Source: Promethearchaeota archaeon
GTDB lineage: Archaea; Asgardarchaeota; Lokiarchaeia; Sigyniarchaeales; SOKP01
NCBI GenBank assembly: GCA_048938025.1
Contig: JBHLMP010000018.1
Coordinates: forward strand, 28,014-58,056
DNA length: 30,043 bases
Direction of reading: 5' to 3'
In this document: one piece after another, positions 11,824 through 19,095 of the stretch
How the letters are laid out: the number at the start of each line of letters is the position of its first letter
How positions within the stretch are numbered: position 1 is the stretch's first letter
Made by a program: the position numbers and the translations under genes
The notes under the pieces: model-generated
What the model was told of the DNA's origin: nothing
Databases searched by the model: none
The model's input: only the letters and a program-made list of their open reading frames with translations

Positions 11824-13035
11824 ATGAAATCTTATATCGCAGATACATTAATAGGAATTTTTGCGGTTGATGAGACCGGAAATATTGTGAATTTTATTGA
11901 TTTTGATGGTGATAATGCAAAAATTATTGAATTTTATAATGCCATCGAAAAAAATGTGATTTTGAAAATATATGAAGATTTCCTACTCGAATTAACTAAT
12001 TCCGGTTTTAGTGAATTCATTTTCGATAATAAAAAGCTAGAAATATTAACTTCAACCAATTTAGGATACAATACAATATTTAAAAATTTGTCAATGGAGC
12101 TAAAGAATTTTCGTTTAACGTTGGAACACCAATTAAAAAAAGTAGGGATATATAAAACTCAAAATGAAATACTTAGACAATATAAAGAGATAAGTGAGCA
12201 ATTAACAAAAATAAAAGTAAGTCAAGCAGGAGGAAAAGCTGATATAATTATAATACAAATAATTACCACATTAGATATTATTAAGAAATCACTAAATTTG
12301 TTTTCTGCCCGGCTGAGGGAGTGGTATGGTCTACATTTTCCAGAATTAACAGATAAAATAATTGATGATGATATTATATTAGCAAGTTTAGTATCAACTT
12401 TAGGTTATAGAAATAAATTTACTGTAGAAAATTTAAAGGAGAATTTTGATCTTAAAGAAAGAACAATTGAAATGTTAACACAACAAGCTTCAGAATCTAT
12501 GGGTGCAGATATTGATCTTACAATTATACAAAATTATGCTCAACAAATTATTGCTTTAGATCGATATAGACAAGAATTAGAAATATATTTAGAAGACTTA
12601 GTTGAAAAAACAGCTCCAAATGTTAATGCCATTATAGGCTCTTTAATAGGAGCAAAATTAATCGCAAAAGCTGGTGGTTTAAGAAAGTTGGCTTTTATGC
12701 CAGCATCTAGAATTCAACTACTAGGAGCTGAAAAAGCGTTATATCGCTTCCTTAAAACAGGAGAAAAAAGACCTAAACATGGTTTGATTTTTCAGTGGTC
12801 TCAAATTAGGTCAGCAAAACCGTGGATTAGAGGTAAAATAGCTCGTCTTGTCGCTGGTAAAATTGGACTATCTGCAAAAGTTGACTTTTTCTCTGGCGAA
12901 TTTATTGGGGACATTTTATCTAAAGAGGTTCAGGAGAAAATAAAAGAAATTGAAGATAAATATCCTAATCCTCCTAAAAAAAATAAATCAGGTAAAATAA
13001 AACAAAAAACAAGAAGTAAAAAGAAAAAAAATTGA
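11824..13035 (+). CDS. nop5: Box C/D sRNP protein Nop5 (Nop56/58 family)
   Basis: RLREWYGLHFPEL, APN...IGAKLIAKAGGL, PASRIQLLGAEKALYR, PKHGLIFQ, RGKIAR; Lys-rich tail. Confidence 0.95.
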   Translation: MKSYIADTLIGIFAVDETGNIVNFIDFDGDNAKIIEFYNAIEKNVILKIYEDFLLELTNSGFSEFIFDNKKLEILTSTNLGYNTIFKNLSMELKNFRLTLEHQLKKVGIYKTQNEILRQYKEISEQLTKIKVSQAGGKADIIIIQIITTLDIIKKSLNLFSARLREWYGLHFPELTDKIIDDDIILASLVSTLGYRNKFTVENLKENFDLKERTIEMLTQQASESMGADIDLTIIQNYAQQIIALDRYRQELEIYLEDLVEKTAPNVNAIIGSLIGAKLIAKAGGLRKLAFMPASRIQLLGAEKALYRFLKTGEKRPKHGLIFQWSQIRSAKPWIRGKIARLVAGKIGLSAKVDFFSGEFIGDILSKEVQEKIKEIEDKYPNPPKKNKSGKIKQKTRSKKKKN

Positions 13036-13052
13036 GGGTTTTTATTTTAAAA

Positions 13053-13754
13053 ATGATAAATATTGAAATTCGAAATCATCCAAAATTTTATAATGTCTAT
13101 ATATCAGGACCTCAAGAAAACTTAAAACTCTATACTAAAAATTTAACTTTAGGGAATAGAGTGTATGGGGAGCGATTAATTAATTATAAGGGGATTGAAT
13201 ACCGAGAATGGGATCCCTTTAGGAGTAAGCTAGCAGCTATATTATTAGAAAATCCTATTATTAGCTTTTTAAATAGTAACTTAAAATGTTTGTATTTAGG
13301 ATCATCATCAGGAACAACAATTTCTCATCTTTCAGATATTGTTCATGACGGAATAATTTATGGTATAGAATTTGCGGAACGAAGTATGAGACAACTAATT
13401 CAAAATACGTCTAAAAGAGCAAATATTGTACCGATATTAGGAGATGCTCGGTATCCAGAAACCTACTCAAATTCAATTTTTACTGATATAGATTTAATTT
13501 ATCAAGATGTTTCTCAACCAAATCAAGCTGAGATTGCTATTCTTAATTCAAATTATTATTTAAATGATGAAGGCACAATCATAGTAGCTATAAAATCTCA
13601 ATCAATAGATAGTATTACTAAATCAGAAAAAATTTATAGACATGAGAGAGATATTTTTGAAAAATCTGGTTATAAGATAATAGAAAGTATAAATATTCAT
13701 AGATACGCTGCTAATCACATAGTTTTAATAGTAAAGAAACAGGAAATTAGTTAA
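13053..13754 (+). CDS. flpA: Fibrillarin-like rRNA/tRNA 2'-O-methyltransferase
   Basis: VYGE, EYREWDPFRSKLAA, LYLGSSSGTTISHLSDI, NIVPILGDAR, YQDVSQPNQAEI; directly follows nop5. ATG at 13053 preferred over TTG at 13032. Confidence 0.95.
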   Translation: MINIEIRNHPKFYNVYISGPQENLKLYTKNLTLGNRVYGERLINYKGIEYREWDPFRSKLAAILLENPIISFLNSNLKCLYLGSSSGTTISHLSDIVHDGIIYGIEFAERSMRQLIQNTSKRANIVPILGDARYPETYSNSIFTDIDLIYQDVSQPNQAEIAILNSNYYLNDEGTIIVAIKSQSIDSITKSEKIYRHERDIFEKSGYKIIESINIHRYAANHIVLIVKKQEIS

Positions 13755-14475
13755 AATATTCAGTAATTTTTCTATTCTTTACTTCTTCATTTAAGATTTT
13801 TTTTGTTGTATCCCAGGATTTCCTGGCAAATTGAGGGGGATTTTTATTTTTTTTAATCCATTCTCTGAGGAAATCTGTCGTTTTTATATCAGAAGGATAA
13901 CCCGAGCCAAAATCACCAAACTTTTCTTTCAATTCTTCTATTAATTTATCTCTTATATCTTTTGCAATTATTGAACTTGCCGAGACTATAGGATATGTAT
14001 CATCAGCTTTATGTTTAGAAATAATTTGCCTTGGCGTATATTCTAATAACTTTCTAATTGATTCTCCGAATCTTTCTTCAATGACATCCGCAGCATCGAT
14101 ATAGATACTATCTGGTTTTAAAACATTTATAATCTCAGCAATTTTTAATTCTTCAAGTCTGTTCATAGAAATATTTCTCTCTTTTCTCTGATCGATCTGC
14201 TTAGCATTAATTATGATAACTTTATAAGATTGACAATTATCTTTTATTGCTTTAGCTAATTCACTTCTTCTTTTAGTGGATAATTTTTTAGAATCCTTAA
14301 CACCTATTTTAGATAAAAAATCTAGTTTTGATCCTTTAAAACAAACACCACACAAAACCATTGGACCTAAGACGGGCCCTTTTCGCACATAATTCGAATT
14401 GAACTATATTCTACCAGCCTCGTCTATACCACAAACTATGTCTAATTCTTTATTATGATTCTTGGACGAGTTCAA
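13747..14475 (-). CDS. rnhB: Ribonuclease HII, interrupted by a 30-nt putative intron (exon 1 14475-14411, exon 2 14380-13747; 232 aa after splicing)
   Basis: Exon 1 encodes ...ELDIVCGIDEAGR. Exon 2 encodes GPVLGPMV...GVKDSKKLS...YIDAAD...KHKADDTYPIVSASSIIAKDIRD...GSGYPSD and a PIP-box-like C-terminus (RKITEYF). Start is TTG 14475 (preceded by GAGGA) or ATG 14493. The ORF-track start (GTG 14388) lies inside the insertion. Confidence 0.9.
14381..14410 (-). other. Putative bulge-helix-bulge (BHB) pre-mRNA intron, 30 nt
   Basis: mRNA sense A AUAUAGUUC AAUUC GAAUUAUGU GCGA AA. It contains an in-frame UAG and a 9-bp internal hairpin, and has 3-nt bulges AGA and AAA flanking a 4-nt central helix. 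Removal restores DEAGRGP. Confidence 0.85.
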
Positions 14476-15457
14476 TGAATTCCTCTTCGTCATCAATTTC
14501 TTCTAAATTTTTAATTCTAACAATAGGAATTTTATTTTTCAAGAAAGTATCTGGGATTTTAATATTGTTATTTACTATAAAGAGTGCAATTTTATGAAAT
14601 AAGTCAGTAAACATTTTTAAGCATATAGGATTTAACTGTTTAATCTTGTTTTGATCTTCGCTAATTCCTGAAAAGAGAGGATAAAAACCTTCTATTTTAG
14701 ACCTGTCAGTTTTGGAATATAAGGATAATTTAAACGGGATAGAGCCTTTTTTATACCAATATGAAGAAATTCCAATATCTTTGAATATTGATTGAACATG
14801 AGATTCAAAATCACTTAATTCGCTCTCCTCCATAAAAGCAAATTGATCTATTTCATATTTGAATTTCCAGTCAAAAACATTGATTTTTTTAAAAATTTCA
14901 CTATCTTCTAAAATGCTTTTAATATTTTCAGCTACTTTTTCAGAAGGATGCATACTTTCATTTTCATACGCACATACAGTTCTTTTTGTGACTCCAAGTT
15001 TTTCTGATAATTCTTTTCTCGATATTGATTGCTTTTCTCGCAGGGTTTTCATCAAATTACCATTTACAAATACAATCCCTCCCCCTCTCTTAGCAAGCAT
15101 ATAAGGGTATATATTTTCCTCTAATATCTTTTTTAAAGTATTAAAAGTTATAAATGGCAATCCATTTCTAATATAAATAGTGTCATCTTCTAATTTTTGA
15201 TATCGATTCCGAATTCCAATTAATAGTGGCTTCGATTTTAGTATTAAGGATAAAGATTTAATATCATTAATTGTATCGGGATTTATATTATCAATATTCG
15301 GGACAATTTTTAAGCTAAAAATTAAATTATTCTTTTTAACTAATATATCAAAACAGAATTTGTTTCTTTTTGAGGAAAAATTGTCTAAAGCAAATGTTTC
15401 GAAATTTGCCTTCCTTAATAAAATATTAATTTTCTGAAGAATCTGATCAATCATCAA
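14453..15457 (-). CDS. Archaeal HTH (Cro/C1-type) transcriptional regulator, COG1395-like
   Basis: CFDILVKK, KIVPNIDNI, LEDDTIYIRNGLP, KRGG, HTH LREKQSISRKELSEKLGVTKRTVCAYE. Confidence 0.85.
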   Translation of the reverse strand: MMIDQILQKINILLRKANFETFALDNFSSKRNKFCFDILVKKNNLIFSLKIVPNIDNINPDTINDIKSLSLILKSKPLLIGIRNRYQKLEDDTIYIRNGLPFITFNTLKKILEENIYPYMLAKRGGGIVFVNGNLMKTLREKQSISRKELSEKLGVTKRTVCAYENESMHPSEKVAENIKSILEDSEIFKKINVFDWKFKYEIDQFAFMEESELSDFESHVQSIFKDIGISSYWYKKGSIPFKLSLYSKTDRSKIEGFYPLFSGISEDQNKIKQLNPICLKMFTDLFHKIALFIVNNNIKIPDTFLKNKIPIVRIKNLEEIDDEEEFIELVQES

Positions 15458-18300: not shown

Positions 18301-19095
18301 TTAATTATTTTTGTCGAGATTGAAATCATAGTCAATCTTTTTCTTTTTTTTTGCTGGCCTTCCAATGTGTATAAATTTTGGCTCAAGATATTGATTAACT
18401 TGTGTATAGCTTCCCATTCCTAGGATAGCTCCTTCTCCTACTATAGTTCCTGGAGAGATAACACTAAATGCACCAATTGTACAACCATCTTTTAGAATGA
18501 CCTTTTTTAGAAGAAGAAAATCACCAAAAATCATTGAGCTCATAATGATAGAACCTTCCCCTAAAATAGTATTCTCACCAATTTCTACGAAATCTGAATC
18601 AATATAACTATCTAATAAACCTGAATTATACGATACTTTTATGTTGCAGATTTTAAGAGCAAATATTTTTACCCAAGGTAATGGAAAGTAGTTATAAGTC
18701 TTTAAGACAAATTTTTTTATCGTTTTTCTTAAAATAAAGAATAAATAGTCTTTATCCCTAAGGTTTCTTTTGAAAATTCCCTCTCTTGGACGGTGGATTA
18801 AATTTATAAGAATTAAGAGTAATTTGGAATAAAAAAGAAGAAATACTAAGAAAAGTCCAAAATAAAGAATAATTAATATGGGTAAGAAGCATATTACTCC
18901 TATTGGAGTGAGCCAAATTGAAAATAAATTAAAAAAAAATTGAAATAATAAAATCGTAGGAAAAACTGAAAGCCATATTAAAATAATATAGATCCAAGAA
19001 AACCAATTCTCATTTAAAGAATTGTTTGTTACAATAATACTCCTAATTCCTGTATCATAATCTGTATTTTCCATTAAATTTTTATTTGGTTTCAT
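18301..19095 (-). CDS. Membrane protein with left-handed beta-helix (hexapeptide repeat) domain, one module
   Basis: Two TM helices, HRPREGIF, then hexapeptide repeats IGENTILGEGSII, LKDGCTIGAFSVISPGTIVGEGAILG, ending GRPAK; overlaps the upstream stop by 4 bp. Confidence 0.8.
   Translation of the reverse strand: MKPNKNLMENTDYDTGIRSIIVTNNSLNENWFSWIYIILIWLSVFPTILLFQFFFNLFSIWLTPIGVICFLPILIILYFGLFLVFLLFYSKLLLILINLIHRPREGIFKRNLRDKDYLFFILRKTIKKFVLKTYNYFPLPWVKIFALKICNIKVSYNSGLLDSYIDSDFVEIGENTILGEGSIIMSSMIFGDFLLLKKVILKDGCTIGAFSVISPGTIVGEGAILGMGSYTQVNQYLEPKFIHIGRPAKKKKKIDYDFNLDKNN

Follow-up and report, generated by a model that had tools for sequence, protein, structure and literature searches.

The window analyzed here is a 30,043-nucleotide (nt) stretch of contig JBHLMP010000018.1 (positions 28,014 to 58,056, forward strand; assembly GCA_048938025.1) from a Promethearchaeota archaeon. 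On its minus strand it carries rnhB, the gene for ribonuclease HII (RNase HII), which clears DNA of ribonucleotides and of primer RNA. The catalytic motif of this gene is split between DEAGR and GPV by a 30-nt insert with an in-frame TAG (positions 14381-14410). The minus strand reads GAC GAG GCT GGT AGA, then the 30 nt, then GGG CCC GTC, and read-through translation yields ...CGIDEAGR, followed by I-stop(TAG)-FNSNYVRK and GPVLGPMV.... The read-through product covers positions 1-199 of the 199-position Pfam profile RNase_HII (E-value: 7.9e-46). Its best solved relative is 1uax, a 220-amino-acid (aa) archaeal RNase HII, and the aligned part begins at the GRGPV motif, past the insert. The 30 nt very probably form a bulge-helix-bulge (BHB) intron of the rnhB pre-mRNA that is cut by the splicing endonuclease EndA and joined by the ligase RtcB. 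We infer the cutting and ligation, as well as EndA and RtcB as the responsible enzymes, from the sequence evidence presented below; the coding segments on either side are referred to as exons 1 and 2. A first-pass annotation of the window had already proposed such an intron in an Asgard archaeon. Its position, sequence and structural details are correct to the base when the minus strand is re-read, and the closest loci (91-93% identical in protein) do belong to Promethearchaeota.

Reading of the DNA confirmed the insert, always at this codon, for 81 species-level genomes from a single Promethearchaeota (Asgard) family, f1. Within the window genome (3.52 Mb, 88 contigs, 96.7% complete), the rnhB described here is the single RNase HII match; one type-1 RNase H-like open reading frame (ORF) is also present. 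Exon 2 is intact (209-210 codons) in 33 of the 33 same-genus genes tested, a set from which two loci were omitted (one N-masked, one cut by a contig end). Among these genes the ratio of nonsynonymous to synonymous substitution rates (dN/dS) of exon 2 has a median of 0.14 and a range of 0.08-0.25 (319 pairs, dS 0.05-1.5). Residues 3-28 of exon 1 match residues 2-27 of an uninterrupted 237-aa homolog at 22 of 26 positions (85%), and exon 2 is likewise 85% identical to this homolog. The two exons are thus equally diverged from it and therefore evolve as one protein. In addition, the protein sequence CGIDEAGR is kept in 81 of 81 alleles while synonymous sites vary (GGT 24, GGC 4, GGG 29, GGA 24). 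Judged by these comparisons, rnhB is under purifying selection and both exons are selected.

An in-frame stop within an essential motif is also what a pseudogene, or an assembly or sequencing artefact, would display. The probability of either is negligible, because the insert recurs in additional metagenome contigs as well as in 81 genomes that were assembled independently, the exon 2 frame is intact in every gene tested and evolves at the dN/dS given above, and there is no second rnhB in the genome. A second intact rnhB combined with relaxed selection on this copy had been named in the first-pass annotation as evidence that would count against splicing; the single copy and the dN/dS values point the other way, and the insertion itself, which the annotation had asked to see supported, is genuine. 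Some family members do have a second, partial RNase_HII match (profile positions 1-165) within ORFs of 277-587 aa (for example G003:C18:144667-145191, G018:C9:18861-19388 and G146:C1:1537-2061); none occurs in the window genome. There is no second copy of the 30-mer in the window and no significant one in the 3.5-Mb genome (blastn-short and nhmmer; next nhmmer match E-value: 0.34). As the insert is single-copy in the genome, a mobile repeat or an insertion resembling a miniature inverted-repeat transposable element was rejected. A search of the whole window against Rfam at the gathering threshold gave 0 matches.

The RNA surrounding the insert is predicted to be unusually stable. The minimum free energy (MFE) of the 70-nt region is -21.8 kcal/mol, compared to -13.1 +/- 2.8 for 200 shuffled sequences (z-score: -3.09), one of which is as stable. 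The MFE structure of the window sequence contains a helix between the two exons and the 9-bp hairpin of the insert. Pairing was counted in a MAFFT alignment of the 81 alleles (77 of them distinct) using a model made up of the outer exon-exon helix, a 4-bp central helix, the 3-nt bulges and the hairpin (Table 1). In the BHB motif, a 4-bp helix lies between two 3-nt bulges on opposite strands, and all 81 alleles keep this 3-4-3 spacing exactly. Helices flank the motif on both sides (hBHBh'), but the motif is a relaxed one, as the exon-side helix is irregular.

Among the 77 distinct alleles, 86.6% of the cells in this model are paired; shifting the partners by 1-3 columns lowers this to 27.7-44.2%. 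Covariation scores 0.328, compared to 0.201 +/- 0.007 in shuffled alignments (0 of 500 reach 0.328), and 86 cells are changed on both sides where 21.4 +/- 4.1 are expected, although the alleles are related and these shuffle statistics overstate their independence. Compensated variants do occur in different genera. The central helix is 93.5% paired and shows compensatory changes. Its inner pair (alignment columns 21-49), which links position 3 of the Gly codon with the base immediately past the hairpin, is UG in 39 alleles, CG in 14, GC in 13, UA in 10 and unpaired in 1; its outer pair (18-52) is UA in 56, UG in 5, AU in 4, CG in 3, GU in 1 and another combination in 8. The hairpin is 88% paired, with changes on both sides in 8 of its 9 pairs, and the closing C-G pair of the outer helix is found in 77 of 77. 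With the alignment as its sole input, RNAalifold recovers the outer helix, the complete central helix and the four innermost hairpin pairs. The variable intron sequence with compensatory pairing that the first look at the locus had led us to expect is therefore what the 77 distinct alleles and RNAalifold provide. An extension of the hairpin by exon UAG and intron UUA, which the MFE prefers in some alleles, was tried and rejected because it fits the alignment worse (extra pairs: 58, 41 and 77 of 77).

Besides the relatedness of the alleles, several observations weigh against a BHB intron. The 4-bp central helix is missing from the MFE structure of the window sequence, which leaves a 6 x 8 internal loop in its place, and the MFE structures have at least three central-helix pairs in 13 of 80 alleles but not in the other 67. 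In the window species this helix has a G.G mismatch and 3 of its 4 pairs form. The outer exon helix is irregular (82% paired), with an A.C mismatch in 77 of 77 alleles; both of these departures from the ideal motif had been recognized when the site was first described. The invariant GG past the 3' bulge can be read either as a 3-nt bulge followed by one C-G pair and a bulged G, or as a 4-nt bulge, and one hairpin pair is open in 32 of 77 alleles. Finally, no second mRNA intron was found in the genome, where structure-only scans could not separate introns from noise: a scan for BHB geometry with ORF restoration gave 3005 matches against approximately 2393 expected at random positions, and a stricter scan gave 3548 against 2807 expected (genome 27-30% G+C).

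Table 1. Features of the rnhB locus and of the putative intron (window coordinates)
Feature	Position	Strand	Description and basis
rnhB exon 1	14411..14493	-	ATG at 14493; 27 codons (M...CGIDEAG), then AG as bases 1 and 2 of the Arg codon
Putative 30-nt BHB mini-intron with in-frame TAG	14381..14410	-	Same site in 81 genomes
rnhB exon 2	13747..14380	-	A as base 3 of the Arg codon, then 210 codons (GPVLGP...) and a stop codon
Outer exon-exon helix, 5' strand (codons GAC GAG GC)	14417..14425	-	MFE; alignment
Outer exon-exon helix, 3' strand GGGCCCGUCU	14370..14379	-	MFE; allele pairing counts; RNAalifold
Central 4-bp helix, 5' (exon) strand UGGU	14413..14416	-	Partner is 14383-14386
Central helix, 3' (intron) strand GCGA	14383..14386	-	U-A, G.G mismatch, G-C and U.G in the window species
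5' 3-nt bulge AGA	14410..14412	-	Predicted cut between 14411 and 14410
3' 3-nt bulge AAA	14380..14382	-	Predicted cut between 14381 and 14380
Intron hairpin, 9 bp with 5-nt loop	14387..14409	-	MFE; alignment

The neighborhood of rnhB is compact. Exon 1 shares positions 14453-14493 (41 nt, in another frame) with the 3' end of an upstream gene for a 334-aa helix-turn-helix protein (HTH_3). In some relatives a stop codon lies 5-6 codons ahead of CGIDEAGR, so exon 1 may encode approximately 10 residues there. Genes for Nop5 (Nop56/58) and fibrillarin, which overlap each other by 4 nt, occupy window positions 11824-13754 on the plus strand and converge on the 3' end of rnhB, with the ends of the fibrillarin and rnhB ORFs overlapping by 8 nt.

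The length variants bear directly on how the gene is expressed. The intron is 30 nt long in 77 alleles, 29 nt in two (one in g1 and one in g19), 28 nt in one and 31 nt in one. All of these insertions and deletions fall within the hairpin arms or loop, and in 81 of 81 alleles the reading frame is recovered by excision alone. An insertion that is translated or tolerated could not survive such a frameshift; one that is cut out could.

The bulges narrow down where the cuts would fall. The 5' bulge is AGA in 76 of the 81 alleles, AGT in three, AGG in one and AAA in one, while the 3' bulge is AAA in 56, ACA in 11, ATA in 10 and another sequence in 4. In most alleles the last base of either bulge is A, which leaves the position of the splice ambiguous by one base. 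The AGT alleles, found in three genomes (two in g29 and one in g22), in metagenome contigs L201, L204 and L205 and in locus L060 (which encodes the same protein as L204 and L205), are free of this ambiguity: their DNA reads GGG-AGT and encodes Ser-Tyr... or Ser-stop, with no contiguous Arg codon, and Arg (AGA) is regained only if the cuts are AG^U and AA^A. The Arg in these alleles thus needs cuts after the second bulge nucleotide, which would fix the cut at the EndA position. According to a passage of PMC12397907, EndA cuts between bulge nucleotides 2 and 3, with the 2'-OH of nucleotide 2 as the group that attacks the phosphate of nucleotide 3. The first-pass annotation had applied the same rule, and it holds up against both this source and the AGU-bulge alleles. 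Given that the third base of the 3' bulge is A in 78 alleles and G in three, the rule produces AGA or AGG in 80 of 81 alleles, including those with 28-, 29- and 31-nt introns; in the remaining allele, which has AAA as its 5' bulge, it produces AAA (Lys). Lys at this position is also found in an intronless homolog.

Two alternatives that involve the insert as RNA have to be weighed against these data. In the first, a nuclease and ligase other than EndA and RtcB, or self-cleavage, would remove the insert. The weakness of the central helix in many alleles would suit such a route. It is nevertheless very unlikely, as the geometry is exactly 3-4-3 and the AGT alleles point to the cut positions of EndA; for self-cleavage, moreover, 30 nt is to our knowledge too small for any self-splicing intron. 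In the second, the insert stays in the mRNA and is bypassed during translation, as in phage T4 gene 60 and the yeast mitochondrial 'byp' elements: the ribosome would leave the mRNA at the Arg codon, pass over the hairpin and resume translation 30 nt further on. The insert is short, its stop codon lies just past the take-off site and the hairpin comes next, all of which would be in keeping with bypass. However, a matching in-frame landing codon is absent, and the AGT alleles have no contiguous Arg codon, so no hop would encode Arg. Covariation between the exon and the 3' end of the insert, like the conserved 3-nt bulges, is unexpected under bypass, which we consider highly improbable.

A further alternative involves no splicing at all. 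Databases list intron-bearing rnhB genes (window 13747-14388, minus strand; P0002, P0003, P0007 and P0023) as 'ribonuclease HII' of 212-213 aa. The start codon of these entries, ATG or GTG, lies within the intron (MRKGPV..., MLKGSV...), so that the catalytic DEAGR segment is missing; relatives without an interruption have 224-238 aa. Among the latter, the relatives of 237-238 aa (85% identity) come from run assemblies with molecule type unstated, and they may represent either intronless species or transcripts. If the database starts were the true ones, translation of the window gene would begin at the in-frame GTG at 14388, which opens a 213-aa ORF, and the protein would be made without the Asp and Glu of the DEAGR segment, which we take to be catalytic residues of RNase HII; alternatively, an exon 1 peptide would complement it in trans. 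An in-frame ATG, GTG or TTG is indeed found inside the insert in 50 of 81 alleles. The remaining 31 have none of the three, and the third base of the would-be start codon shows the covariation of an RNA pair with a base of the exon. Neither the upkeep of CGIDEAGR upstream of such a start in every allele, despite its varying synonymous sites, nor the equal divergence of the two exons fits a gene that begins within the insert, and its product would be short of two catalytic residues. There is accordingly very little chance that the gene is expressed from an internal start.

The distribution of the insert is patchy and, among the genomes examined, confined to one family. In a first draw of 60 relatives, all same-genus matches have 1-2 internal stops, start past the insert or are cut, and the full-length ones are 627-630 nt long; matches in other families are stop-free and, when full-length, mostly 603-618 nt. 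A family-wide search covered 135 genomes, of which 127 have a match. The insert was verified in 50 genomes of g1, where it can also be inferred for G109 (a 630-nt match with a TAA) and is lacking in G106. It is present in 14 genomes of g28, in which two fetched genomes were verified to be without it and 23 others have uninterrupted matches of 597-600 nt. In g27 it is present in two genomes, verified as absent from two fetched ones, and accompanied by three uninterrupted 600-nt matches and one partial match. It occurs in 5 of 5 genomes of g21, 4 of 4 of g22, 4 of 7 of g29, 1 of 2 of g23 and the single genome of g19, but in none of g18, g20, g24, g25 and g26.

Where the insert is missing, it is missing precisely. 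This is the case in 14 fetched genomes of the family and 10 fetched genomes of other families, in which AGA or AGG, CGT or AAA is joined directly to GGN. The clean presence or absence at exactly this codon that had been predicted for related genomes is therefore observed, with 81 genomes on one side and 24 contiguous ones on the other. In a phylum-wide draw of 301 genomes, stops are confined to family f1 among the 150 listed of 383 matches. The three closest metagenome contigs (90-95% protein identity) all have the intron, and intronless contigs are 69-72% identical; no spliced copy from an intron-bearing species was seen among the scanned metagenome contigs of relatives. A second intron site was considered in g57 (another Asgard family; L272-L277), where RNase HII scores are low (E-values: 1e-16 to 1e-26), and was ruled out: in the five genomes tested these genes are divergent, single open frames of 262-282 aa with protein-level insertions and 0 stops.

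In a tree of 61 distinct exon 2 proteins (full-length-gene loci, with nine identical duplicates dropped and most family members, fetched as 401-nt slices, left out), the six intronless sequences of the family are scattered among 45 intron-bearing ones. The tree requires a minimum of six changes of intron state, of which the well-supported branches force one only. G106 is sister to the clade of the window species with 82 in the Shimodaira-Hasegawa-like approximate likelihood ratio test. This pattern is probably best described by one gain in the ancestor of the family followed by precise losses in some lineages, and several independent losses are likely.

Codon usage around the insert differs between intron-bearing and intronless alleles. 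GAG encodes the Glu in 80 of 81 alleles with the intron, compared to 9 of 14 intronless family members, and GGA encodes the Gly before Arg in 0 of 81 alleles with the intron, compared to 8 of 14 intronless ones. On these counts, synonymous sites that take part in the pairing are frozen in intron-bearing alleles only. G106 (locus L169 of g1; protein 81% identical to that of the window) is precisely without the intron and reads GAT GAA GCA GGA CGT at this point, having changed four of the five codons that pair in intron-bearing alleles. This looks like a release of RNA-level constraint after intron loss.

The components required for BHB splicing are encoded in the genome. EndA is represented by two paralogs, 201 and 200 aa in length. 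The first aligns end to end with the EndA chain of Aeropyrum pernix (E-value: 2.4e-35). The second is divergent and, inspected by eye, lacks the catalytic His, on what we presume to be the catalytic residues of EndA. RtcB is encoded by an ORF of 496 aa with 0 stops (contig C68, positions 33115-34422, minus strand), and a gene for archease adjoins it on the opposite strand (C68, positions 32674-33093, plus strand). Both a splicing endonuclease and an RtcB-type ligase, as membership of the BHB class calls for, are thus present, and dependence on the tRNA-splicing machinery, suggested when the insert was first noticed, has its parts in place: two EndA paralogs, RtcB and archease. ARAGORN detects 32 tRNAs and calls an intron in 18 of the 32, several at non-canonical positions; these calls are approximate, and the tRNA set is probably incomplete. 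The cbf5 gene (TruB_N; C68, positions 18733-19074, minus strand) is a single uninterrupted ORF of 337 aa. Asgard EndA is reported, in a passage of PMC5829648, to be an (alpha-beta)2 enzyme with an L1 loop that gives it broad specificity.

The proposed model for rnhB expression is as follows. In the pre-mRNA, exon 1 (GAC GAG GC) would pair with exon 2 (GG..CCGUC), and the final exon bases UGGU would pair with the last four intron bases ahead of the AAA bulge, leaving the remainder of the intron as a hairpin. In each 3-nt bulge, a heteromeric EndA would then cut between nucleotides 2 and 3 (AG^A and AA^A). The exons would be joined by RtcB, together with archease, to give AGA-GGG and thereby DEAGR-GPV in a 238-aa RNase HII. 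On an unspliced mRNA, translation would stop at the stop codon of the intron after 29 residues.

The closest known counterpart is the cbf5 intron of Crenarchaeota, on which Watanabe reportedly published in 2002. As described in a passage of PMC2738675, this intron splits a catalytic Asp codon, has been gained and lost, and is linked to a heteromeric endonuclease. Like it, the rnhB element is a short EndA-type intron (predicted here) within a coding sequence, where it splits a codon of a catalytic motif. Both are patchy among relatives, which implies gain and loss, and both go with a hetero-oligomeric, broad-specificity endonuclease; as with cbf5 introns, some alleles keep the reading frame and yet the intron must be removed. 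The differences are that the host gene encodes RNase HII and not a pseudouridine synthase, that the hosts are Promethearchaeota (Asgard) and not Thermoproteota, and that the length of the rnhB intron is very uniform (28-31 nt). Splicing of cbf5 has been shown by experiment, whereas that of rnhB is predicted from sequence.

Other BHB introns can be compared in the same manner. The rnhB element would share its 3-4-3 motif, cut positions and enzymes (the last two predicted) with the archaeal tRNA and rRNA introns. Unlike these, it lies in an mRNA, where the reading frame demands base precision and codons constrain the exon strands. A passage of PMC7714728 describes an mRNA on which the splicing endonuclease acts, that of Haloferax volcanii HVO_1309, with its BHB intron in the 5' untranslated region (UTR). 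In contrast to that case, in which the enzyme is of the homodimeric type, the rnhB intron lies in coding sequence and not in an untranslated leader. The same source states that besides the 5'-UTR case cbf5 was the only known mRNA BHB intron as of 2020. No description of an intron in rnhB, or of a BHB intron in Asgard mRNAs, was found in the literature that was searched, with most subscription journals lying outside the search.

A likeness to the eukaryotic HAC1 and XBP1 mRNAs had also been suggested at the outset. These mRNAs contain a short intron that is removed without the spliceosome, by the nuclease IRE1, which recognizes paired stem-loops, and with RtcB ligation in animals; the reading frame depends on the removal, and the whole serves as a regulated stress switch. 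Such unconventional splicing of HAC1/XBP1 is named in a passage of PMC13149111. The rnhB intron would likewise be a short, non-spliceosomal mRNA intron on whose removal the reading frame depends, but with the tRNA endonuclease (predicted) and a BHB motif in place of IRE1 and paired stem-loops. As far as regulation is concerned, the likeness is an analogy only. Taken further, it would make the intron a checkpoint and post-transcriptional switch instead of a neutral passenger, with RNase HII being made only when tRNA-splicing endonuclease and ligase capacity is to spare, as an archaeal counterpart of HAC1/XBP1. We regard this as a rather doubtful, speculative extension. The intron is kept in at least 81 species and a stop in the exon 1 frame is found in 81 of 81 alleles, both of which would suit a checkpoint. 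Against it stands the apparent precise loss of the intron in some lineages, which would therefore be dispensable.

If the proposed splicing is correct, completeness estimates, metabolic inferences and expression constructs based on the 212-213-aa entries would be wrong. The 81 alleles, with their four lengths and fully compensated helices, would represent a natural experiment on the tolerance of a broad-specificity EndA outside tRNA. The precise losses, together with the later release of frozen synonymous sites, would provide a clean case of intron gain and loss in prokaryotes. Finally, with cbf5 of Crenarchaeota as the only precedent in the literature searched, rnhB would be the second archaeal gene with a BHB intron in its coding sequence and the first one from the archaea most closely related to eukaryotes.

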